This document shows, one piece after another, positions 11,521 through 44,760 of a stretch of DNA of 64,000 bases; positions within the stretch are counted from its first letter, which is position 1, and the number at the start of each line of letters is the position of its first letter. The position numbers and the translations under genes were made by a program. Source of the stretch: Nitrospirales bacterium (GTDB lineage Bacteria > Nitrospirota > Nitrospiria > Nitrospirales > UBA8639); NCBI GenBank assembly GCA_963555755.3, contig OY820905.2, positions 4,224,001 through 4,288,000 on the forward strand. The letters are read 5' to 3'. The notes beneath the pieces were generated by a model that ran no database searches, had not been told where the DNA came from, and saw only the letters and a list, made by a program, of their open reading frames with translations.

Positions 11521-11623
11521 TAGTGGATTCTCTTTCTCAATTGAATATCCTATTAAAACCAAAAAAAGACAACAGGGTCAAGCCAAAAATGGGAGAGGTT
11601 GTGTTGTATGTGGTTTTCCCTCT

Positions 11624-12090
11624 GTCATTTCGACCCTTGGGAGAAATCTCTCATTCGACAATGAGGGGAGATTTCTCGCTCCACTCGAAATGACAAGACC
11701 GTTGTGATCTGTCATTTCGACCCTTGGGAGAAATCTCTCGTTCGACAATGGGGGGAGATTTCTCGCTCCGCTCGAAATGACAAGACCGTTGTGATCTGTC
11801 ATTTCGACCCTTGGGAGAAATCTCTCATTCGACAATGAGGGGAGATTTCTCGCTCCGCTCGAAATGACAAGACCGTTGTGATCTGTCATTTCGACCCTTG
11901 GGAGAAATCTCTCGTTCGACAATGTGGGGGAGATTTCTCGCTCCGCTCGAAATGACAAGACCGTTGTGATCTGTCTCGACCCTTGGGAGAAATGACAAGA
12001 CCGTTGTGATCTGTCATTTCGGGGAGATCTCTCATTCGACAATGAGGGGAGATTTCTCGCTCCACTCGAAATGACAAGACCGTTGTGATG
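11624..12090. repeat. Tandem array of 87-bp palindromic units (4 full + 2 internally deleted)
   Basis: Units start at 11624, 11711, 11798, 11885, 11973 and 12013; each GTCATTTCGA..GAGAAATCTC-loop-GAGATTTCTC..TCGAAATGAC plus a constant linker AAGACCGTTGTGATCT. Confidence 0.95.
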
Positions 12091-12710: not shown

Positions 12711-12851
12711 GGGCACCTCTACAAACCAGGCATTTTTTGTGAGGGCAAGGAAGCCGCGCGCGGAAAACCGGAGTGTATGGGCGAATACATGAGGATGTGA
12801 GCACGCGGCTGACGCCGCCATCACGGAAAAGGACGGTTTTTAGAGGTGCCC
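12711..12851. mobile_element. 141-bp MITE, copy 1
   Basis: IRs GGGCACCTCTACAAACC / GGTTTTTAGAGGTGCCC; TTAA duplication; same sequence as 60367-60507. Confidence 0.9.
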
Positions 12852-12892
12852 TTAAGATCTTTTGCCGAAATTATAGGGCCAGGAACGAATTC

Positions 12893-13459
12893 ATGCGTAA
12901 ACCCAACGACATCACTATTGATCGGACCTTACTGATCTACGTGCTTCATTTTGCGGAGTCGAAGGAGTTTTCGATGGTCAGTGATGTGAAGCTTCAGCAG
13001 CTTGTGTTTCTTGCCGAGTTGCAAATGCTTGGAAAAGGGTTGCGTGGGTTTCATTATGAGTTTATGCGTTACCCCTATGGAGCCTTCAGCAAAGATCTCG
13101 ACAATGACCTGCTGGCCATGCGCAAGAAAGAACGGTTAGAGAATTTTGATGTGGTCGGGCAGGCGGAGGACTGTATTCCGCTTTTGGAGGAAGCCATTCC
13201 TGGCGTCGAGGCGAATGAACAGATCATGGAAATCATCCAAGCCGTGGTCGAAACCTACGGGTCCAAAGACCTTGGTGAGATTTCGAAATCTGTCGAAGAT
13301 GTGGAAATCAGCGTGGTTGATCGTCCTGAAGATAAAATAGTTATTCTCGATATTCCCTTTCACTCCATGATGTTGGTGCCTTCTCGCATCGAAGTCACTG
13401 GGGAATTTTCTTTCCTTCCCAAAACTCTCTCTCAACTGAATACGGCGCTTGGGATGTAA
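12893..13459 (+). CDS. SocA/Panacea (DUF4065)-like protein
   Basis: KLQQLVFLAE and YEFMRYPYGAFSKDLDNDL resemble the KLQKL..LA / F..Y.YGP.S signature; the upstream ORF extension lies inside a MITE. Confidence 0.6.
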   Translation: MRKPNDITIDRTLLIYVLHFAESKEFSMVSDVKLQQLVFLAELQMLGKGLRGFHYEFMRYPYGAFSKDLDNDLLAMRKKERLENFDVVGQAEDCIPLLEEAIPGVEANEQIMEIIQAVVETYGSKDLGEISKSVEDVEISVVDRPEDKIVILDIPFHSMMLVPSRIEVTGEFSFLPKTLSQLNTALGM

Positions 13460-13536: not shown

Positions 13537-13857
13537 CTACTTGGATGAAGGTGATTGGGTGGCAACCCCAATCGTGATGAGTTCTTTTAGTTTGGCGAAT
13601 TTTCCTGTGTCAATGCCATTGACTTTCATCAGCTCATTGATACTCGTGAAGGGCCCAACGTCCGTTCGATAGTTGACAATGCGTTGGGCGATTTCTTTGC
13701 CAATGCCTGGCAATAGTTCAAGCTGTTTGGTCGTGGCGGTATTGAGATCGATTGTGCCCTCAGCGGCGAGCACCAGACCAGGAAAACTCAAACACAATAC
13801 GAAGGCCAACAGTCCAATGGTCATGTAAGACCGAGCAAATTGTTGAAACGGATTCAT
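13537..13857 (-). CDS. comEA: ComEA-family helix-hairpin-helix DNA-binding protein
   Basis: Signal peptide; IDLNTAT..QLELLPGIG..IAQRIV.YR..GPF.S..EL..V.GI. Confidence 0.85.
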   Translation of the reverse strand: MNPFQQFARSYMTIGLLAFVLCLSFPGLVLAAEGTIDLNTATTKQLELLPGIGKEIAQRIVNYRTDVGPFTSINELMKVNGIDTGKFAKLKELITIGVATQSPSSK

Positions 13858-14051
13858 ACACTTTCCCTCCTTTGAATAAGATTAAATGACCAGAAGAAAC
13901 ACTCCTGACTTTTCATGAAGCAGAATGTATGCCAGTTCGAGGCTAGAGTCAAGCCCCAGGGCTAATTCATATTAGAGTGTAACTTTATAGATAATAAGGA
14001 ATAATCGATTTAGGCTGGCTTTTTCTTTTCGTTTACAGCATACTCTTTTGC

Positions 14052-15179
14052 ATGCCAGACGAATCGCCCAGCGGACAGCCGGTCATTGATCTGAGGCAAG
14101 TCGTGGTTCGCCCAATTGTCCGGGACGAGCAGGACGCCTTCAAGTCCCTCCTCGCCCGACATCACTACCTCGGGCCTGCCCCGTTGATTGGCCCCTCGAT
14201 CCAATATCTCGCCTGTGTGCAGGATCGCTGGCTGGCCTTGCTGGTGTTTGCGGCGGCGGCCCTCAAATCGAAACCGCGCGACCACTGGATCGGCTGGCCC
14301 CCCTGTTTTCACTGGCAACGCCTCCATTTACTGGCCAACAACACCCGGTTTCTCATCCTGCCGGACTGCTCGCAAAAGAACCTCGCCTCGAAAGTCCTGG
14401 CGCTCTGCGCGAAACGGATCGCGGCCGATTGGCAACTGTGCCACGGCTACCCCTTGCTCCTCTTAGAGACCTTCGTCGATCCTGCCCGCTTCACCGGGAC
14501 CTGCTATCGAGCCGCCGGGTGGCAGGAGCTCGGGCTGACACGAGGGTTTCGCAAGTCCAATACGCGGTATGTTCAGCATGACCGCCCGAAACGCATCCTG
14601 GTCAAGAGCCTCCATCCCCAAGCCCGAGAGATTCTTGCACGCCCGATGCTTGATCAGCCCTATCAGAAAGGAGAAGCGCCTCAGATGAGATTGAATACAA
14701 AACAGACGGACTCCCTCTTTACGTATGTGGTGCAGCTGACCGATCCCCGCCATTTGCAAGGGCAACGGCACACCCGACGCGCCCTCACGGCGATCATGTT
14801 CTGTGCCACCTTGTGCGGCGCGCGCGGCTATGAAGCGATCTCGGACTGGGCCCAGCAGTTATCGCAGCCGATGCGCAAGCGGCTAGGCTGTACTCAGCGA
14901 GGGGGGCGCTACCTCGTCCCGAGCCGCAGCACTCTTTACCGCTTTATCACGGCCGTCGACCCCTGTGAAGTCGATACCCTGCTCGGCCGGTGGCTGGACA
15001 CCTTCGGCGGGGAGGATCAGGGCATTGCCATTGATGGCAAGACCATGCGGGGGACTTCGAAGGTCCCGAGCGAACAGACCCATGTCCTCAGTGCCGTCAC
15101 CCATGACGAGGGGCGCCACCTCACCCAAAAAAAGTTAACTCCAAAACCAATGAGATCCCCTGCGTGCGGCCCCTGTTAG
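14052..15179 (+). CDS. DUF4338/DruA-like domain fused to the N-terminal half of an ISAs1 transposase
   Basis: HHYLG, RDHWIGW, NNTRFLILP, ETFVD, GTCYRAAGW; then DPR..G.RH and AIDGKTMRG (ISAs1). Confidence 0.85.
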   Translation: MPDESPSGQPVIDLRQVVVRPIVRDEQDAFKSLLARHHYLGPAPLIGPSIQYLACVQDRWLALLVFAAAALKSKPRDHWIGWPPCFHWQRLHLLANNTRFLILPDCSQKNLASKVLALCAKRIAADWQLCHGYPLLLLETFVDPARFTGTCYRAAGWQELGLTRGFRKSNTRYVQHDRPKRILVKSLHPQAREILARPMLDQPYQKGEAPQMRLNTKQTDSLFTYVVQLTDPRHLQGQRHTRRALTAIMFCATLCGARGYEAISDWAQQLSQPMRKRLGCTQRGGRYLVPSRSTLYRFITAVDPCEVDTLLGRWLDTFGGEDQGIAIDGKTMRGTSKVPSEQTHVLSAVTHDEGRHLTQKKLTPKPMRSPACGPC

Positions 15180-15799
15180 ATGCGCTCGAGATCGCAGGGA
15201 AGGTGATCACGGCGGATGCGCTCCTCACCCAGAAAGAGATTGCCGAGTACCTGGTGCACGAACGCGGCGCCGACTTCGTCTTCACCGTCAAGGGAAACCA
15301 GCCCACCTTGAAGCACGACATTGAGGCCTTGGCGTTGCGAGCACGCCGGTGTGATTATGCCACCACCGAGAAAGGCCATGGGCAGATCACGACCCGCAGG
15401 ATCTGGTGCGATGACTCCCTGAATGCCTATGTCAACTTTCCTCATGTCCAGCAAGTCTTCTGCATTGAGAGGGAAGTGACGCATCTCAAGCAGGGCCTCA
15501 CGACCGTCGAAGCGGTCTGCGGTGTCACGAGTCAGTCCAAAGACAAGGCGGGGCCGAAGACCATCCTCTCGCAAAACCGAAAGCATTGGAGTGTGGAGAA
15601 TAAGCAGCATTATGTGTTGGACGTCACCTTTGATGAAGACCGGAGTCAGATCAGACGGCTCAATGGCCCGATGGTCATGACCTGTCTGAGACGCTATGCC
15701 ATCAGTCTCTTACGCGTGAAAGGCAACACCAATATCGCGCAGGCGTTTAGATGGCTCTGGGCCAAGCCGCATGTAGCCATCCGTATGGCCTTGCCCTGA
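15134..15799 (+). CDS. C-terminal half of the ISAs1 transposase, in the -1 frame (frameshift at A-AAA-AAG 15128-15134)
   Basis: -1 frame reads VNSKTNEIP..LL...ITADAL.TQ, VKGNQP.L, EKGHG, RKHWSVEN.H..LDV.F.ED. Confidence 0.85.
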   Translation, partial: VNSKTNEIPCVRPLLDALEIAGKVITADALLTQKEIAEYLVHERGADFVFTVKGNQPTLKHDIEALALRARRCDYATTEKGHGQITTRRIWCDDSLNAYVNFPHVQQVFCIEREVTHLKQGLTTVEAVCGVTSQSKDKAGPKTILSQNRKHWSVENKQHYVLDVTFDEDRSQIRRLNGPMVMTCLRRYAISLLRVKGNTNIAQAFRWLWAKPHVAIRMALP

Positions 15800-15926
15800 A
15801 AAAGAGAGCAAAAAAACCTAATGGAACCACTTGCTTATAAAAAGAATGAAATGGCCCTGGGGGGAGTCTTAGGTGGATACGAATGACGGCGACATAAAGT
15901 GGCCTACCCAATTGAAGAGACGAGAG

Positions 15927-16301
15927 ATGCGCAACCAGCAAGGCGTAACCCTTGTGGAAGTCATCATTGCCATGGGCCTGGTGTTCATGGCGCTCCTCGC
16001 GCTTTCCGGGTTGGCCACGGTGTCGTTGAAGGGGGCTGCCACGGCCAAACATCTCACCACGGCCACGGTATTAGCGCAAGAAAAACTCGAAGATGTGAAG
16101 CTGACCGGGTACAACCCGGATATCGTCAGTAGTGTAGAAGTAGACGAACCGTATGAATCCTTGCCAGACTTTCCTCTCTATAAACGAGTTGTAACGATTG
16201 ATCCCAACAATCCGACTATCGGCCTGCAAACCGTCACGGTGATGGTTTCGTGGGCCGACGACCGTCACGCCGTTTCACTGTCCACCATCTTGGCCGAATA
16301 A
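15927..16301 (+). CDS. Type IV minor pilin, PilV-like
   Basis: Prepilin motif QQG|VTLVEV; LAQEKLE. Confidence 0.8.
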   Translation: MRNQQGVTLVEVIIAMGLVFMALLALSGLATVSLKGAATAKHLTTATVLAQEKLEDVKLTGYNPDIVSSVEVDEPYESLPDFPLYKRVVTIDPNNPTIGLQTVTVMVSWADDRHAVSLSTILAE

Positions 16302-16303
16302 CC

Positions 16304-16927
16304 ATGGCCGATCATTGGGGCACACTTTTTGATCAACGCGGGGTGACGTTAACCGAACTCATGGTAGCGTTGGTCATGGGATTGGCGACCGTTGCGGCAG
16401 TGTATAGCGTGCACCTGGTGCAAGTGAAGCAGCGAATCCTTCAAGAGGATGTCATGGCCATGCAACAAAATGCTCGTGCGGCCATGGATCTTATGACTCG
16501 CGAGATTCGAATGGCTGGGTATGATCCAATGGGGGTGAATCGAGATGGGAGTGACTCGAATGATTTTTCCGGGGTGGCCTACCACCCAACGGAACTTCAG
16601 ATCAAATCAGACCTTAATGGGAACGGGCTTCTCACGGATTCGAACGAATCCATCGTGTTTCTTTATGATGCCTCAACCTTGACCCTCAGACGGAAAGTCG
16701 GTCGAGGCGGGCGACAACCCCTGGCTGAACATATCCAGTCCCTTGCCCTACAATATTTCGACCAGGGTGGTGCTCCAACAATAGATTCAACAAACATTCG
16801 TATGATAGAAGTAGCACTCACTGCACAAACAGAACATGCCGATCCCCAGTATCCCAAAAATGAAGGACACCGAACCTTTACCCTGCGATCCCGAGTCACC
16901 CCAAGAAATTTAGGCTTATTGCGATGA
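16304..16927 (+). CDS. Type IV minor pilin, PilW-like
   Basis: QRG|VTLTELMVA; QQNARAAMDLMTREIRMAGY; C-terminal PRN. Confidence 0.85.
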   Translation: MADHWGTLFDQRGVTLTELMVALVMGLATVAAVYSVHLVQVKQRILQEDVMAMQQNARAAMDLMTREIRMAGYDPMGVNRDGSDSNDFSGVAYHPTELQIKSDLNGNGLLTDSNESIVFLYDASTLTLRRKVGRGGRQPLAEHIQSLALQYFDQGGAPTIDSTNIRMIEVALTAQTEHADPQYPKNEGHRTFTLRSRVTPRNLGLLR

Positions 16928-17318
16928 AGACGGCATCGTGATCCGTGCAAGCCAACTTCTCACGCGACGTCTGGGAGTATTTGGGGCTATCCGGGCTAGC
17001 TTTCACTTGGGTCAAAAATATAAAATATGGGGTCAGACTCGAATTAATGGATGTTTCTGCTCATGTTTAGTTGGCCAAATACCTAATAAATCGAAAGGGT
17101 CAATCGCGTTTCGTCTATCACATTCTGCTTGTATTGTAGGTTTGTCCAAGCCGACCCCTACTTTCATTCCCCCGTTCAATTATCATTTTTTGGCCTGTTG
17201 TTCTTGTAAGGTCAGACTCTGCTTTGTGATTCATGGGTCGAGGTAACTACTCAGGTCAATTTTCTATAGCCTGATTTTTTTCTGGACTAACGGCTCCACC
17301 CATGGCATAATCGGGGCC

Positions 17319-18206
17319 ATGAATGAAGCGATTACATGTCAAGGTCGTCGCCTCCCCCAATCTGATCTGTGCTGGTTACGCCATCTGGTTTGCCGGCACC
17401 CTGACTGGAGCCGCCATAAAATAACCCAGCATATTTGTCGGCACTGGGGCTGGCAGACCCCGTCCGGACAACTGAAAACCTTTGCCGCCCGCAGCATGAT
17501 CGACAAACTCGAACATCGCGGGCTCCTGAAGCTGCCCCCGATTCGTGTCGCCTCTCGACGCAACATCTTCCCCCCTTTCCGAAAGGGGTTTATGCCTCCC
17601 GAAGCCCCGCACATCGACGCAGCTCTCAAGACCCTGACGCCCCTGTCCATTCATATTCCAACCTCACATTCCTACGAAGCCAGTTGTGTGGGATATTACC
17701 TGAGCCACCATCACTACCTCGGGTTCACCCGAACGGTCGGTGAACATCTCAAGTACCTGGTGCGGGATCGCTCCGGGCAGGATCTGGCCTGCCTCCTCTT
17801 CGGTTCCGCCGCCTGGAAAACCACCCCGCGCGACACCTTTATCGGCTGGGAGCCGGACACCCGAGCCGCCAACCTCAACTTCATGACCAACAATACCCGC
17901 TTTCTCATCCTGCCCTGGGTGCGTGTGCCGCATCTGGCCAGCCATCTCCTGGGCCGGGTCATGAGACGTCTCCGGCAGGACTGGATCGAGAAATACGGCC
18001 ATCCCGTCCACTTGGTGGAGACCTTTGTGGAGCGAGACCGCTTCAAAGGTATCTGCTATCAGGCCGCGAACTGGCTCTATGTCGGGCAGACCAAAGGCCG
18101 GTCCCGGCAGGACCGTGACAAGGCTCTGCGCGTGCCGGTGAAGGCAATTTATCTCTATCCCCTCATCCGCCACTTCCGACAGGCCCTCTGCCGGAGCAAG
18201 CCATGA
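17319..18206 (+). CDS. DUF4338/DruA-like protein (passenger or accessory gene of the IS66-like element)
   Basis: HHYLG, RDTFIGW, NNTRFLILPW, ETFVE, GICYQAANW, GQTKGR; ATGA overlap with the transposase. Confidence 0.85.
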   Translation: MNEAITCQGRRLPQSDLCWLRHLVCRHPDWSRHKITQHICRHWGWQTPSGQLKTFAARSMIDKLEHRGLLKLPPIRVASRRNIFPPFRKGFMPPEAPHIDAALKTLTPLSIHIPTSHSYEASCVGYYLSHHHYLGFTRTVGEHLKYLVRDRSGQDLACLLFGSAAWKTTPRDTFIGWEPDTRAANLNFMTNNTRFLILPWVRVPHLASHLLGRVMRRLRQDWIEKYGHPVHLVETFVERDRFKGICYQAANWLYVGQTKGRSRQDRDKALRVPVKAIYLYPLIRHFRQALCRSKP

Positions 18207-19651
18207 CCTTCACCCGCGACGCACTCCTCATCCTGGCCAAGAGCAACCCCGAGGCGCTCGTCGAACTGATCCTGGCGCTGCAGGAACAGGGGCAGGCGCT
18301 GACCACGCATGTCACCGAACTGGCACAGCGGCTCGACCAACACAGTCGCAACAGCAGCAAACCGCCCTCGTCCGATGGACCGGCCAAGCCCCGAACCAAG
18401 AGCCTGCGCATACCTTCCGGGAAAAAGCCGGGCGGCCAACAGGGACATGCCGGCCAGACGTTAAAACAGGTGGAAACCCCAGACCACCTGGTCCACCTGC
18501 CTGTTCACTCCTGTTCCTGCCATGCCGACCTCACCAACGAGACGGTCACCGGCTATGAACGCCGGCAGCTCTTTGAACTGCCGGAGCCAAAACTCGACGT
18601 CACCGAATATCGGGGAGCAATCAAAACCTGCCCCCAATGCGGCCGCTCGGTCACGGCGTCATTTCCTGATGACCTGCCTGCGCCGGCACAGTACGGTCCC
18701 AGATTTCGCAGCCTCCTGGTCTACCTCCAGAACCAACAGTTGATCCCCTTACGCCGTGTCAGCCAGATGATGGCTGATCTGTATGGCGCCTCGGTCAGCG
18801 ACGCCACCATTGACGAGGCCTCCCGCCGAAGTTATGAGCACCTCGCGCCGTTCGAGACTGCGGTCAAAGAAGCGCTCGGCAAGAGTCCCATCCTCCATGC
18901 CGATGAAAGCGGCGTCCGCACGGCCGGGACGCTCCACTGGCTCCACAGTGCCAGCACGGCCACGTTGACCTTTTACGGTGTGCACGCCAAACGGGGAAGA
19001 GAGGCGATCGAGCAGTTCCAGATCCTCCCGGATTTTGCTGGCCGCCTGATCCACGATTTCTGGAAACCCTATCTCTCCTATGACTGTGCCCACGGCCTCT
19101 GTAACGCCCATCATTTGCGGGAACTCACGTGCCTGTTCGAGCAGCACGAACAACCATGGGCCAAACACATGTTTGACCTGTTGCTGACGATGAACGTGTT
19201 TGTCAGCAAGCAACTCGCACAGTTAACGGAAGAACAGAAAACCCCCTGGCTGAAACAATACAGGGATCTTCTCACCCTCGGATGGCAGGCCAACCCCCTT
19301 CCGGCACCGCCACAGAAAAAGTCACGAGGCCGGCCCAAAAAGACCAAGGCCCAAAATCTCCTCACCCGTCTTGGCGAGCATGAAGCCTCCGTGCTCGCGT
19401 TCCTCCATGACAGACAGGTTCCCTTCACTAATAATCTGGCAGAACAGGATATCCGCATGATCAAGCTCCGCCTCAAAATATCCGGGTGTTTTCGAACGCT
19501 TCAAGGCGCGAGGCAGTTCGCCCGCATACGAAGCTACCTTTCTACCGCGAGAAAGCAGGGCGGCAACATGCTGCAAGCCATTTCACAAGCCATGATCGGC
19601 CACCCCTTTATGCCTGCACAATTCACTACAAAGATCATCACACCTGAGTAG
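18203..19651 (+). CDS. IS66-family transposase
   Basis: NSSKPPSSD, KPGGQ.GH.G, CPQCG, HADES, CNAHHLREL, TNNLAEQDIR, KISGCFR. Confidence 0.95.
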   Translation: MTFTRDALLILAKSNPEALVELILALQEQGQALTTHVTELAQRLDQHSRNSSKPPSSDGPAKPRTKSLRIPSGKKPGGQQGHAGQTLKQVETPDHLVHLPVHSCSCHADLTNETVTGYERRQLFELPEPKLDVTEYRGAIKTCPQCGRSVTASFPDDLPAPAQYGPRFRSLLVYLQNQQLIPLRRVSQMMADLYGASVSDATIDEASRRSYEHLAPFETAVKEALGKSPILHADESGVRTAGTLHWLHSASTATLTFYGVHAKRGREAIEQFQILPDFAGRLIHDFWKPYLSYDCAHGLCNAHHLRELTCLFEQHEQPWAKHMFDLLLTMNVFVSKQLAQLTEEQKTPWLKQYRDLLTLGWQANPLPAPPQKKSRGRPKKTKAQNLLTRLGEHEASVLAFLHDRQVPFTNNLAEQDIRMIKLRLKISGCFRTLQGARQFARIRSYLSTARKQGGNMLQAISQAMIGHPFMPAQFTTKIITPE

Positions 19652-19781
19652 TTACGGGTCGAGAAGGTTTTATCCCTTGAGGAATGTTTGAAGATTGGTG
19701 ACAATGCGGGCATTGAAAAATGAATAATGAAATAATGTCAGCTCACATGGTCTTGTATGATGAACGAAGGGAGTCATCCTC

Positions 19782-21284: not shown

Positions 21285-22598
21285 ATGTGTGACCAAGCTG
21301 GAAGAACAGTAACCGTGTCTGCCGGGAATCGGGGCTTTGCTTTAGTCGCGGCGTTATTGTTGGTTGTGGTGGTGGGGATTGTTGCAGCGACGGTGCTGCA
21401 GACGACTTCGACTGAGATTAAAATCAGTGGGAATCAGCGGCGAGCGGTGCAAGATTTTTATGTGGCTGAGGCGGGATTGGCGGAAGGTCAAGCGCGGTTA
21501 CGCACGCGAGCAGGGGTTGAACAATTTGTTATGTTTGATCTCGGCCCCGGATCCAATCCCTTCTGGTCAGTGTATATTTTGACGTCTTCTACCTGGGAGC
21601 CCCAAGACGACCCGAACTTTTCTTCTCAATATTTGAATCTCATTCCGCAACCTGGAAATCCTACCAGCACAGTGGTTCAACCCAATAGTGTGCAATCGGC
21701 TCTTCCGTACTGGGTCAAACTTCGTCATAAAACGGAATATGATGCGGAGCAGGCTGGGCACCGCACCAGCACTCCCCATTACTTCGATGGGGACGGGAGT
21801 ACGTCAACACATCGGTCCCCTAATGTGGGAAATGTCATCTATTTTGGATATCCGAATATCGATGCGACTGAGCCTCAGCAGTTTTCGACTCAAGGCCAAA
21901 CGCCTTGGCTCCCCATTGAGCTGATTACTTCGAATGGGGGGAATGATGTTGGTGGGGTTCTCTTGGAAATTGAGGCGGTACATCCCGCCGGGCCGAATCA
22001 TCTGGGCGCATTGTATGCGGAAGGGGACGTCATCCTTTCTGGTCAATCTGGAACTCTCAATGGTCACGATGCTTGTGGTGTCGTGTCCAGCCTTCCTCCG
22101 GTGTATTCAAGAAGTACTGTCACACAAGGGCCTGCTGTCCAATTTGATGGAATCCCGGGATCGCCCGTTCAAGGGAGCGTTGTCTTAGATCTTGTTCAAT
22201 CAATTGATGACCTCAGTCGAGGGGCAATACCGATTCAATCAGATTTGTTGAATCAACAATTGGGGAGCTCTTCAGTTCCTGAAACCTATTTGGCCATTGT
22301 GTCTCGCTTGCCAAATTCCAGTCGTCTTCTTATTCGAAATACCGTGGGATACGGAATCCTATTGGTGGATGGTACGGCGATTCTTGAAGGGCAGGTGTCG
22401 TGGCAAGGGATGATTATCGTGACCGGCGACCTTTTCATCCAAGGAGACGGGGCTAGCATTTCTGTAAACGGGGGACTGTGGGCGAGAAGCGTCCAGCAAA
22501 CAGGGGGGAGTCTTAACATTCAATATGACAGTTGCCAGATTCAAGCTTCTCTTCTCTCTCGGGCGGTACAGGTGAGGTCATGGAGGGAGGGTTTTTAA
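21285..22598 (+). CDS. PilX-like pilus assembly protein
   Basis: RG|FALV.ALL; E.KISGN; FYVAEAGL; C-terminal SWRE. Confidence 0.8.
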   Translation: MCDQAGRTVTVSAGNRGFALVAALLLVVVVGIVAATVLQTTSTEIKISGNQRRAVQDFYVAEAGLAEGQARLRTRAGVEQFVMFDLGPGSNPFWSVYILTSSTWEPQDDPNFSSQYLNLIPQPGNPTSTVVQPNSVQSALPYWVKLRHKTEYDAEQAGHRTSTPHYFDGDGSTSTHRSPNVGNVIYFGYPNIDATEPQQFSTQGQTPWLPIELITSNGGNDVGGVLLEIEAVHPAGPNHLGALYAEGDVILSGQSGTLNGHDACGVVSSLPPVYSRSTVTQGPAVQFDGIPGSPVQGSVVLDLVQSIDDLSRGAIPIQSDLLNQQLGSSSVPETYLAIVSRLPNSSRLLIRNTVGYGILLVDGTAILEGQVSWQGMIIVTGDLFIQGDGASISVNGGLWARSVQQTGGSLNIQYDSCQIQASLLSRAVQVRSWREGF

Positions 22599-34713: not shown

Positions 34714-35725
34714 TATGCCTTCCCATTTGACTAAGGTTAGTCCCTAGACTAGTCTGCTGGACTATGGACACAGGGTATGCTGCTGATATCTTGGATTTTT
34801 CTGTTAGGTTCCACACCGAAGAAGCGTGCTTCGAGTACTTGCGGGCGATTCGGTGGCCAGACGGGTTTATGTGTCCAGCTTGCGGTCATCGCGGTGGTTG
34901 GTGGCTCAAAAAATATTTCCGGTTTGAGTGTTCGTCGTGTCATAGACAGACATCACCGCTAAGCGGCACAGTGATGCATAGATCGCACTTGCCGCTACGG
35001 CTTTGGTTTTGGGCTGCCTATTTCGTCTCCACGCACACACCTGGCATCAGTGCTGTGCAATTGCAGCGTCAACTCAGTATCAAGAAGGTGGATAGCGCCT
35101 GGTATTTGCTCCACAGATTGCGACGAGGAATGGTACGACAGAACCGTGAACGGCTCGCAGGAACAGTTGAAGCCGATGAAACCCATATCGGTGGACCGGT
35201 AAAAGGCAAAACGGGCCGTGGCGTCGCGAAAGCGAAAACCAAGACGTTAATAGCCGGAGCCGTAGAAATTGTCACGTACACACAAGGGGATCACTTTCGA
35301 GAGAAAGCAGGGCGTTTACGATTAGCGATTCTTCAAGACGCTGGAGAGAACGAGATCAAAGCATTCCTCAATAGCCATGTCGCTGAGGGCAGTAAGATCA
35401 AGTCCGATGGTTGGAAGGGATACTCGGCAAAAGCCTTGGCAGGATACGAACACCTGAGACGGACCCAGGGTGACCCAGCAAGTGCTGGGAAGCACGCTCC
35501 ACACATCCATAGAGCGTTCGGCAATCTGCAGACCTGGCTGAACGGGATTCACCATGGAGTGGATTCAAAATACCTGCAACACTATCTTGATGAGTTTGTC
35601 TTTCGCTATAACCGCCGTGAGACTCCAATGAGTACCTTCCAGAGTTTGTTGAAAATCCTGACCAGCAGCTCAAAACCCTTGGGATTCAATAAACTGAAGC
35701 AACCTTAGTTAAATGGGAAGGCATA
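34714..35725 (+). mobile_element. IS1595-family element (1012 bp)
   Basis: IR TATGCCTTCCCATTTGACTAAGG / CCTTAGTTAAATGGGAAGGCATA; 8-bp TSD TATATAAA. Confidence 0.95.
34764..35708 (+). CDS. IS1595-family transposase
   Basis: RWPDGF.CPACG..CSSC Zn ribbon; VEADET; SDG; YLDEFVFRYNRR. Confidence 0.95.
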   Translation: MDTGYAADILDFSVRFHTEEACFEYLRAIRWPDGFMCPACGHRGGWWLKKYFRFECSSCHRQTSPLSGTVMHRSHLPLRLWFWAAYFVSTHTPGISAVQLQRQLSIKKVDSAWYLLHRLRRGMVRQNRERLAGTVEADETHIGGPVKGKTGRGVAKAKTKTLIAGAVEIVTYTQGDHFREKAGRLRLAILQDAGENEIKAFLNSHVAEGSKIKSDGWKGYSAKALAGYEHLRRTQGDPASAGKHAPHIHRAFGNLQTWLNGIHHGVDSKYLQHYLDEFVFRYNRRETPMSTFQSLLKILTSSSKPLGFNKLKQP

Positions 35726-41775: not shown

Positions 41776-41982
41776 CCCTGTCGGCCTTGCTCCAATTCTG
41801 AGATTTCGTTTACGTTTTTTTGCAATAGAAGCTCATGGCAAAAGAATATTTGGAGAAATTGTCGGTCTTCATAGAAAAGGCCACATGTGATTATTCTAAA
41901 AATATCGTAACTACTCAGGTCAATTTTCTATAGCCTGATTTTTTTCTGGACTAACGGCTCCACCCATGGCATAATCGGGGCC

Positions 41983-42870
41983 ATGAATGAAGCGATTACA
42001 TGTCAAGGTCGTCGCCTCCCCCAATCTGATCTGTGCTGGTTACGCCATCTGGTTTGCCGGCACCCTGACTGGAGCCGCCATAAAATAACCCAGCATATTT
42101 GTCGGCACTGGGGCTGGCAGACCCCGTCCGGACAACTGAAAACCTTTGCCGCCCGCAGCATGATCGACAAACTCGAACATCGCGGGCTCCTGAAGCTGCC
42201 CCCGATTCGTGTCGCCTCTCGACGCAACATCTTCCCCCCTTTCCGAAAGGGGTTTATGCCTCCCGAAGCCCCGCACATCGACGCAGCTCTCAAGACCCTG
42301 ACGCCCCTGTCCATTCATATTCCAACCTCACATTCCTACGAAGCCAGTTGTGTGGGATATTACCTGAGCCACCATCACTACCTCGGGTTCACCCGAACGG
42401 TCGGTGAACATCTCAAGTACCTGGTGCGGGATCGCTCCGGGCAGGATCTGGCCTGCCTCCTCTTCGGTTCCGCCGCCTGGAAAACCACCCCGCGCGACAC
42501 CTTTATCGGCTGGGAGCCGGACACCCGAGCCGCCAACCTCAACTTCATGACCAACAATACCCGCTTTCTCATCCTGCCCTGGGTGCGTGTGCCGCATCTG
42601 GCCAGCCATCTCCTGGGCCGGGTCATGAGACGTCTCCGGCAGGACTGGATCGAGAAATACGGCCATCCCGTCCACTTGGTGGAGACCTTTGTGGAGCGAG
42701 ACCGCTTCAAAGGTATCTGCTATCAGGCCGCGAACTGGCTCTATGTCGGGCAGACCAAAGGCCGGTCCCGGCAGGACCGTGACAAGGCTCTGCGCGTGCC
42801 GGTGAAGGCAATTTATCTCTATCCCCTCATCCGCCACTTCCGACAGGCCCTCTGCCGGAGCAAGCCATGA
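41983..42870 (+). CDS. DUF4338/DruA-like protein
   Basis: Identical translation to 17319-18206. Confidence 0.85.
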   Translation: MNEAITCQGRRLPQSDLCWLRHLVCRHPDWSRHKITQHICRHWGWQTPSGQLKTFAARSMIDKLEHRGLLKLPPIRVASRRNIFPPFRKGFMPPEAPHIDAALKTLTPLSIHIPTSHSYEASCVGYYLSHHHYLGFTRTVGEHLKYLVRDRSGQDLACLLFGSAAWKTTPRDTFIGWEPDTRAANLNFMTNNTRFLILPWVRVPHLASHLLGRVMRRLRQDWIEKYGHPVHLVETFVERDRFKGICYQAANWLYVGQTKGRSRQDRDKALRVPVKAIYLYPLIRHFRQALCRSKP

Positions 42871-44315
42871 CCTTCACCCGCGACGCACTCCTCATCCTGG
42901 CCAAGAGCAACCCCGAGGCGCTCGTCGAACTGATCCTGGCGCTGCAGGAACAGGGGCAGGCGCTGACCACGCATGTCACCGAACTGGCACAGCGGCTCGA
43001 CCAACACAGTCGCAACAGCAGCAAACCGCCCTCGTCCGATGGACCGGCCAAGCCCCGAACCAAGAGCCTGCGCATACCTTCCGGGAAAAAGCCGGGCGGC
43101 CAACAGGGACATGCCGGCCAGACGTTAAAACAGGTGGAAACCCCAGACCACCTGGTCCACCTGCCTGTTCACTCCTGTTCCTGCCATGCCGACCTCACCA
43201 ACGAGACGGTCACCGGCTATGAACGCCGGCAGCTCTTTGAACTGCCGGAGCCAAAACTCGACGTCACCGAATATCGGGGAGCAATCAAAACCTGCCCCCA
43301 ATGCGGCCGCTCGGTCACGGCGTCATTTCCTGATGACCTGCCTGCGCCGGCACAGTACGGTCCCAGATTTCGCAGCCTCCTGGTCTACCTCCAGAACCAA
43401 CAGTTGATCCCCTTACGCCGTGTCAGCCAGATGATGGCTGATCTGTATGGCGCCTCGGTCAGCGACGCCACCATTGACGAGGCCTCCCGCCGAAGTTATG
43501 AGCACCTCGCGCCGTTCGAGACTGCGGTCAAAGAAGCGCTCGGCAAGAGTCCCATCCTCCATGCCGATGAAAGCGGCGTCCGCACGGCCGGGACGCTCCA
43601 CTGGCTCCACAGTGCCAGCACGGCCACGTTGACCTTTTACGGTGTGCACGCCAAACGGGGAAGAGAGGCGATCGAGCAGTTCCAGATCCTCCCGGATTTT
43701 GCTGGCCGCCTGATCCACGATTTCTGGAAACCCTATCTCTCCTATGACTGTGCCCACGGCCTCTGTAACGCCCATCATTTGCGGGAACTCACGTGCCTGT
43801 TCGAGCAGCACGAACAACCATGGGCCAAACACATGTTTGACCTGTTGCTGACGATGAACGTGTTTGTCAGCAAGCAACTCGCACAGTTAACGGAAGAACA
43901 GAAAACCCCCTGGCTGAAACAATACAGGGATCTTCTCACCCTCGGATGGCAGGCCAACCCCCTTCCGGCACCGCCACAGAAAAAGTCACGAGGCCGGCCC
44001 AAAAAGACCAAGGCCCAAAATCTCCTCACCCGTCTTGGCGAGCATGAAGCCTCCGTGCTCGCGTTCCTCCATGACAGACAGGTTCCCTTCACTAATAATC
44101 TGGCAGAACAGGATATCCGCATGATCAAGCTCCGCCTCAAAATATCCGGGTGTTTTCGAACGCTTCAAGGCGCGAGGCAGTTCGCCCGCATACGAAGCTA
44201 CCTTTCTACCGCGAGAAAGCAGGGCGGCAACATGCTGCAAGCCATTTCACAAGCCATGATCGGCCACCCCTTTATGCCTGCACAATTCACTACAAAGATC
44301 ATCACACCTGAGTAG
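42867..44315 (+). CDS. IS66-family transposase
   Basis: Identical translation to 18203-19651. Confidence 0.95.
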   Translation: MTFTRDALLILAKSNPEALVELILALQEQGQALTTHVTELAQRLDQHSRNSSKPPSSDGPAKPRTKSLRIPSGKKPGGQQGHAGQTLKQVETPDHLVHLPVHSCSCHADLTNETVTGYERRQLFELPEPKLDVTEYRGAIKTCPQCGRSVTASFPDDLPAPAQYGPRFRSLLVYLQNQQLIPLRRVSQMMADLYGASVSDATIDEASRRSYEHLAPFETAVKEALGKSPILHADESGVRTAGTLHWLHSASTATLTFYGVHAKRGREAIEQFQILPDFAGRLIHDFWKPYLSYDCAHGLCNAHHLRELTCLFEQHEQPWAKHMFDLLLTMNVFVSKQLAQLTEEQKTPWLKQYRDLLTLGWQANPLPAPPQKKSRGRPKKTKAQNLLTRLGEHEASVLAFLHDRQVPFTNNLAEQDIRMIKLRLKISGCFRTLQGARQFARIRSYLSTARKQGGNMLQAISQAMIGHPFMPAQFTTKIITPE

Positions 44316-44760
44316 TTACAAAATATCAATCTTGAATGCAAGCACTTCTTTAGTGGTGCTGCACTGTATGCGGATGAAGGAATCTGTATATCGTTAACCC
44401 CAGTTGGATTAGCCATGAAACTTCCAGAGGAAACCAAAGCAAGACTGTTAAAAATTAAGAAGGCCATCCCTCTGAGATACTTTCCAAAAGGTCCAATAAA
44501 AAAAGAGTATGTTCTGTTTCCCGGTGGCGTAGCAAAGGGTGGGAAGGTATTACAAAAATACGTGAAAGACAGTATCGAGTATGTGCTCACCTTTCCCAAG
44601 CCTAAAAGAAAGCAGTGAAAAGGTCATTTTTTGTTGAGAGATTTTCCGGAAGACTGCGATCTGCGGCCTCAGTATCCAGTGGAATAGTCAGGAAAGACAG
44701 CCCTTTACCAAATGGTGTATAACAAGTCCCTGGAGGAGATGCAGCGAAAAGGTTAAACCT

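Follow-up and report, generated by a model that had tools for sequence, protein, structure and literature searches.

The Mom protein of Mu is described in the available part of PMC13219725 as a Gly-tRNA-dependent N6-adenine aminoacyltransferase. The same source states that Mom needs residues H58, Y59, R111, S124, D149, R151 and Y159, and that a helix-turn-helix (HTH)-like insertion (175-209) with W181 is essential. DUF4338 is named as a GNAT domain in the portion of PMC10853773 that was available. Here we describe two insertion sequences (ISs) that each carry a DUF4338/DruA (PF14236) domain, one of the ISAs1 family and one of the IS66 family, in 64,000 nucleotides of a Nitrospirales bacterium genome (assembly GCA_963555755.3, contig OY820905.2, positions 4,224,001 to 4,288,000; hereafter the window). 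Our leading reading, a tentative one built on structure models and analogy, is that ISs keep a Mom-like GNAT enzyme as a passenger that shields them from restriction. The association between module and IS is real, and ordinary in its distribution.

The link between this domain and transposases is probably in print already, as the first-pass annotation of this DNA thought it might be. Iyer et al. reportedly linked Mom-like proteins to diverse bacterial transposases in 2009 and proposed a DNA-modifying role. In the literature that we searched, which included few subscription papers and no supplements, we found no discussion of DUF4338/DruA or Mom on ISs, no test of the module's function and nothing on promoter targeting by ISAs1. 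The available parts of PMC7261163, PMC12707154, PMC4738411, PMC3874153, PMC11318856, PMC4422693, PMC13639185 and PMC13463889 do not discuss the module on ISs, while that of PMC7824862 mentions momylation systems in phage and bacterial genomes, crediting the 2009 and 2013 papers of Iyer et al.

Two elements with a common domain

The first-pass annotation treated positions 13957-19655 as one region in which two unrelated IS families carry the same domain. Both proteins lie where it placed them and have the listed motifs in common, and their hosts do belong to different families. The region is not a single unit: it comprises two separate elements, with pilus-type genes (15873-16927, PF07963) between them. 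Their features are as follows (open reading frame, ORF; amino acids, aa).

13957..15859, plus strand: ISAs1-family element, 1903 bp, with CAGGG...CCCTG ends; this copy has no target duplication
14052..15179, plus strand: ORF A, 375 aa, with the Mom-like PF14236 domain, PF13808 (N-terminal transposase part) and the first catalytic Asp
14085..14636, plus strand: Mom-like GNAT domain of the ISAs1 fusion, approximately residues 12-195 (H38, Y39, R99, S113, D143, Y152)
15128..15134, plus strand: slippery heptamer A AAA AAG; a -1 shift here, presumably programmed, yields one 582-aa frame
15164..15799, plus strand: C-terminal DDE part of the ISAs1 transposase (PF01609), in the -1 frame
17243..19655, plus strand: IS66-family element, 2413 bp, with perfect 14-bp inverted repeats and the 8-bp target duplication GGGTCGAG
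17283..17311, plus strand: promoter-like -35/-10 pair; the -10 ends 7 nt 5' of the ORF1 start, and there is no Shine-Dalgarno sequence
17319..18206, plus strand: stand-alone ORF1, 295 aa, with an N-terminal helical (HTH-like) part (residues 1-75) and a Mom-like GNAT domain (residues 105-290)
18203..19651, plus strand: IS66 DDE transposase of 482 aa, with a 4-nt overlap at the ORF1 stop
41907..44319, plus strand: second, identical IS66 copy, with target duplication AAAATATC; its ORF at 41983 is identical to ORF1

PF14236 is fused to the transposase in the ISAs1 element and forms a separate upstream gene in the IS66 element. It scores 92 bits in ORF A (E 4.7e-26) and 113 bits in ORF1 (E 2.6e-32) against a gathering cut-off of 27, and the two domains are 40% identical over 166 aa (BLASTP, E 4e-33). 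The fusion noted in the first-pass annotation exists, in that ORF A joins the domain to a transposase part; the ORF stops at 375 aa, however, and the full 582-aa transposase requires a -1 shift at A AAA AAG.

The transposase model NF033564 (matched over two frames), the CAGGG ends and duplications in line with the 9-10 bp of the family identify the first element as ISAs1. Unlike its relatives, it measures 1.9 kb instead of 1.2-1.5 kb, bears an N-terminal Mom-like domain and an apparently conserved -1 frameshift, belongs to a separate transposase clade and inserts upstream of -35 boxes. Genome-wide there are 41 near-full copies, 86-100% identical, and duplications of 9-11 bp flank 27 of the 36 copies whose ends could be paired. 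The second element has the IS66 transposase model NF033517, GTAA ends and an 8-bp duplication; neither of its two ORFs matches the TnpA or TnpB family. It thus resembles the single-transposase type of IS66, which we take to be the ISBst12 group, and differs from it by the upstream Mom-like passenger gene. Its 14 genome copies are 99.7-100% identical. Both elements are recently active.

Predicted fold and Mom-type residues

Does the shared domain resemble Mom in more than motifs? The first-pass annotation proposed a GNAT fold of the Mu Mom type, and the structure models agree, matching Mu Mom (PDB 8BV8) best or nearly best. In the ORF1 model (mean predicted local distance difference test score 82.7), a helical N-terminal domain precedes a GNAT domain. 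Compared with 48,161 chains, the model finds 8BV8 first (Z 13.4, root-mean-square deviation 3.6, 167 residues aligned). The ORF A model also has 8BV8 as its first match (E 6.4e-8), and a phage Mom ranks ninth among its matches to viral models. Both proteins match the Mom-like phrog_1384 (E 7.6e-5 and 1e-3).

The Mom-type residues are aligned and conserved. A weak profile alignment (E 0.008) pairs Mom H58/Y59, S124, D149 and Y159 with ORF1 H132/Y133, S208, E238 and Y247; R111 is matched to ORF1 R194 by motif and spacing only. This arginine is kept among Mom homologs but not across GNATs, according to the available part of PMC7261163, and R194 is invariant in 124 of 124 representatives of less than 50% identity. 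The other positions are kept in most of these (H 123, Y 104, S 121, D/E 114, Y 120) and in the 120 ISAs1 fusions (H 120, Y 119, R 119, S 120, D/E 120, Y 120).

Several comparisons count against a Mom assignment. The lead of 8BV8 over the next GNAT for the ORF1 model is just 1.1 Z units (12.3), and Foldseek lists 8BV8 third, though with the highest TM-score listed. The hhalign match to Mu Mom that underlies the alignment is weak (probability 5%). ORF1 reaches 19.1 bits against the PF25680 cut-off of 27.1 and ORF A does not match that family, while some relatives exceed the cut-off (P0207). Mom R151 falls one position off the conserved R/K241, and an Arg-rich loop of approximately 20 residues replaces the HTH insertion with W181. 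PDB sequence searches with ORF1 and with its profile returned no match. Mom relatives from viral contigs, collected for a sharper profile comparison, were 85-100% identical copies and too close to serve.

Compared with Mu Mom (PF25680, PHROG 1384), then, the module has the predicted GNAT fold and counterparts of H58, Y59, S124, D149 and Y159 and, judged by motif and spacing, of R111. It differs in its 13% identity in the structural alignment, its extra RD..IGW insertion and its carriage by ISs, and its enzyme activity is predicted from models. We consider that the module probably works like Mom, although two Mom features, the HTH insertion and a score above the PF25680 cut-off, are missing. 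Could it instead acylate a protein or tRNA, such as the transposase, RNA polymerase or a TacT-like toxin target? Ordinary GNATs lie only about 1-2 Z units from Mom, and the DNA-binding insertion is gone; yet the His-Tyr and arginine motifs are of the Mom type, and no antitoxin gene lies inside either element. We regard a protein or tRNA substrate as improbable, and the balance of the evidence leans toward DNA, whether the purpose is shielding or self-regulation.

Spread across insertion-sequence families

In all reading frames of the host genome, 76 ORFs or fragments contain the domain. By inspection, all of these come from the two window elements, from another ISAs1 type or from two more fusions, which group with IS4-type and Tn5-type relatives (a placement by tree alone). 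Among GTDB genomes, 224 stretches encode a relative, of which 80 were kept. Once 12 near-duplicates and a single contig-end locus had been set aside, 63 of 67 downstream ORFs match a transposase model, from eight family models: IS66 (46), IS4 (5), ISKra4 (4), IS4/IS50 (3), IS1182-like (2), ISAzo13 (1), IS1634 (1) and ISNCY/IS5 (1); four match none. Among the 20 loci checked, inverted repeats surround both genes in IS4, IS50, ISKra4 and IS1182-like elements. No enclosing repeats were resolved at L007 (ISAzo13), L011 (IS1634), L016 (ISNCY/IS5), L027 and L052, so the partners there may be nested insertions.

Fusions are as varied. A transposase domain is joined to the module in 23 of 40 long representatives, at either end and of six kinds: Tn5-type (10), IS4 (7), IS66 (3), ISAs1 (1), IS701 (1) and IS630 (1). 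In a quick unrooted tree of 89 domains, 11 partner labels change 15 times (the minimum being 10), ten of the changes involving IS66 alone, and the window's two domains sit in different supported groups. Sequence comparison thus indicates that the module has switched transposase partners repeatedly, and capture by several IS types, suggested in the first-pass annotation from two cases, extends to at least eight transposase family models. Within the host phylum, 26 of 151 genomes contain PF14236, as against none of 14 control genomes. Overall, the profile matches 9,768 clusters (50% identity), defence forms of DruA included.

Archaeal assemblies, too, contain the stand-alone gene (L016 and L040; Methanosarcinaceae and Bathyarchaeum). 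In P0197, P0191, P0227 and P0254 the module is joined to an adenylate/guanylate cyclase domain, MORN repeats or DUF6788; these may be chimeric gene calls. The IS4-type Mom fusion of the host (G000 C1, 1962178-1964756, and its copies) has G+C-rich palindromic flanks or G/C runs.

Relation to Druantia DruA

The window elements are not Druantia systems. None of DruB-E, the DruE helicase included, lies beside them, where the neighbors are transposases and pilus genes; a true Druantia locus with DruD/DruE is present in the same phylum (L136). The PADLOC DruA model gives ORF1 an E value of just 5e-4 over 50 residues and does not match ORF A, whereas defence DruA proteins score 1e-90 or better. Like the module, Druantia type I DruA and DndF-fused DUF4338 proteins have PF14236 and the RD..IGW insertion. 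Defence DruA differs in its length (about 380-410 aa), its lack of most Mom motifs and its position beside DruD/DruE or methylases, neighbors that the IS-borne forms do not have. Three defence DruA proteins of the host phylum lack the HY, NxxRF and ETFVD motifs, leaving only the RD..IGW insertion and a tyrosine in common with the IS module.

These comparisons bear on the suggestion that the module, as a relative of DruA, acts against phages and thereby earns the element its keep. The common family and insertion speak for it, as do the DruD/DruE, methylase and HerA-like genes that adjoin DruA homologs. With so poor a PADLOC match, the motifs missing from defence DruA and no defence partner inside the elements, we judge it quite unlikely. 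The anti-phage benefit raised in the first-pass annotation is thus weakly supported. A practical consequence is that PF14236 matches labeled 'DruA' are often transposons, not Druantia defence.

Two other loci, L137 and L138, have a defence-type DruA and no DruE in the fetched stretch; one set of neighbors is a type I-like methylase with PD-(D/E)XK and HerA-like genes, the other a type II restriction-modification pair with a TmtA-like gene.

Expression signals

The heptamer A AAA AAG is kept in all 34 gapless genome copies of the ISAs1 element and, at identities as low as 43%, in 23 of 25 outside loci. Of 120 ISAs1-fusion homologs, 113 are no longer than 410 aa and two are full length in frame. 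From this conservation we infer a programmed -1 frameshift, although no significant hairpin was found 3' of the slippery site (z -0.55). The unshifted product consists of the enzyme and the end-binding part. Stand-alone genes show a different arrangement: at 51 GTDB loci none has a Shine-Dalgarno sequence, and in 30 a -10-like hexamer ends 6-7 nt before the start (a count with no host-gene control). This combination points to a probable leaderless mRNA for stand-alone Mom-like genes across phyla. Contigs from RNA libraries (X9, X14, X15) represent both elements and lack the single-copy pilus genes; given the many copies of each element and the DNA that such libraries may contain, this coverage does not demonstrate transcription.

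Selection and possible functions

Why would insertion sequences keep such an enzyme? We infer DNA as substrate, tRNA as donor and a protective role. The module would acylate adenine in DNA, probably, as in Mu, with an amino acid taken from a charged tRNA. As a passenger it would shield element DNA from restriction on entry into a new host. The stand-alone form could bind DNA through its N-terminal helical domain, and the fusions through the transposase's own end-binding domain, either replacing the HTH insertion of Mom. In ISAs1, frameshifting would yield less of the full transposase than of the unshifted product.

Three observations are difficult for restriction shielding. The DNA on which an element enters is unmarked, and raising a shield at that stage would be difficult. 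The available part of PMC12707154 describes Mom as toxic on expression, yet this genome contains the 76 domain ORFs or fragments. With this query, 2 of 72,556 plasmid records and none of 50,697 phage records contain the domain, which leaves no evident vehicle that a shield would benefit.

Another reading has the enzyme tune transposition, as an epigenetic brake or licence, by marking adenines at or close to the element's own ends or promoter. DNA marking by Dam, which acts on IS10 and IS50, is a precedent for such control. This reading accords with the repeated fusion to end-binding domains (the 23 of 40 above) and with a frameshift that leaves enzyme plus end-binding part as the unshifted product. 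A natural mutant also bears on it: 9 of 31 main-clade ISAs1 copies, at nine different sites, carry R99W at the invariant arginine, a spread that loss of a brake would permit. However, R99W and intact copies coexist in one cell, so the spread of the mutant shows neither gain nor loss; the stand-alone form has no tether to the ends, and the end sequences of the partners are unrelated. We hold self-regulation to be rather unlikely and rank restriction shielding ahead of it.

Because R99W copies occupy nine sites, a copy can apparently move without module activity in cis; intact copies may supply that activity in trans. Mom-less ISAs1 elements are also common and mobile. A core role in transposition is therefore not borne out. 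Could the module be a neutral hitchhiker? R99W is tolerated in the short term. The selection data argue otherwise: in ISAs1 pairs the ratio of nonsynonymous to synonymous substitution rates (dN/dS) is 0.14-0.31 for the domain and 0.10-0.26 for the transposase part, in effect equal, and for the stand-alone domain it is 0.07-0.19 (pairs with measurable dS). Invariant residues across 124 distant clusters add to this, and we consider hitchhiking very improbable. The purifying selection (0.07-0.31 overall) that the first-pass annotation had set as a check on its proposal is thus present.

If active, these proteins would form a very large family of DNA-modifying enzymes on simple transposons rather than phages, and environmental bacteria, with some archaea, would bear a bulky adenine mark in their cellular genomes. 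The 2009 prediction becomes testable, since one genome supplies both active elements and an arginine mutant of natural origin.

Insertion upstream of promoters

Insertion at a fixed distance upstream of promoters is a trait of ISLre2-type elements. The Mom-carrying ISAs1 element shows a similar preference. Of 75 distinct flanks, 14 have a TTGACA-like hexamer 17-19 nt from the element's end, where the background is 1.0%; the other 57 offsets give 11 matches in total. The -10 boxes peak at 41-43 nt (12 versus 2.2 expected). Mom-less ISAs1 elements of Photobacterium and Aeromonas have one -35 and one -10 match in 58 flanks (Fisher p 0.0018 for the -35 preference, 14/75 versus 1/58). The 19-nt spacing is repeated in five distant Mom-carrying ISAs1 loci (L139, L154, L158, L159, L267), where flank counts are anecdotal, as automatic end-finding failed at most such loci. 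The available part of PMC9208149 reports no such insertion upstream of promoters for ISAs1.

Does the module guide these insertions? As a target-selection or DNA-binding aid it would steer ISAs1 upstream of sigma-70 promoters, and the flank counts, the -10 peak and the recurring spacing would follow. Other carriers, however, show no -35 peak (IS66 0/25 and 2/40, IS4 fusion 0/22, ISKra4 0/28 flanks). R99W copies keep the targeting (5 of 8 at promoter sites, versus 7 of 22 others). The transposases of Mom-carrying ISAs1 elements form their own clade (25 with Mom, 2 without), so that clade and domain are confounded; G832, a Mom-less member, is a single copy and hence offers no targeting control. 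On these three grounds, promoter targeting is probably a trait of the ISAs1 transposase clade, and a guiding role for the module seems a poor prospect. Promoter-proximal insertion by this ISAs1 subgroup is a separate, measurable trait. A bolder picture, which we would call a long shot, is that ISs trade a portable, tRNA-fed DNA-hypermodifying enzyme among some ten transposase families as their own epigenetic writer, one ISAs1 clade making it in excess by ribosomal frameshifting and using it for guidance to safe sites immediately upstream of sigma-70 promoters.

The window copy of ISAs1 adjoins a promoter as well.

13924..13952, minus strand: promoter-like -35 TTGACT/-10 TACATT with a 17-nt spacer, of the adjoining comEA-like gene, read from the sequence

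This copy is a 96% variant with no duplication (13940-13956, 15860-15875). Its end is 4 nt from the -35 box of the comEA-like gene, compared with 18-19 nt at typical sites; an adjacent deletion or recombination between copies is the probable cause.

Neighboring features

The two elements lie within a competence or type IV pilus cluster (13537-13857, 15873-16927, 21285-22598) that includes a ComEA-like helix-hairpin-helix protein and N-methyl pilin-type genes. Elsewhere in the genome, head-to-tail ISAs1 tandems have a common target duplication (G000 C1, near 89416-93236, 987417-991236, 1120294-1124114 and 4163782-4167525). Upstream in the window, 11578-12042 consists of tandem units of approximately 87 bp, similar to repetitive extragenic palindromic sequences, with a repeated peptide in a spurious ORF, and 12773-13459 has a weak SocA/Panacea-like match (PF13274, E 0.003). 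A further element of approximately 1012 bp, at 34714-35725, has more than 30 near-identical copies in the genome.

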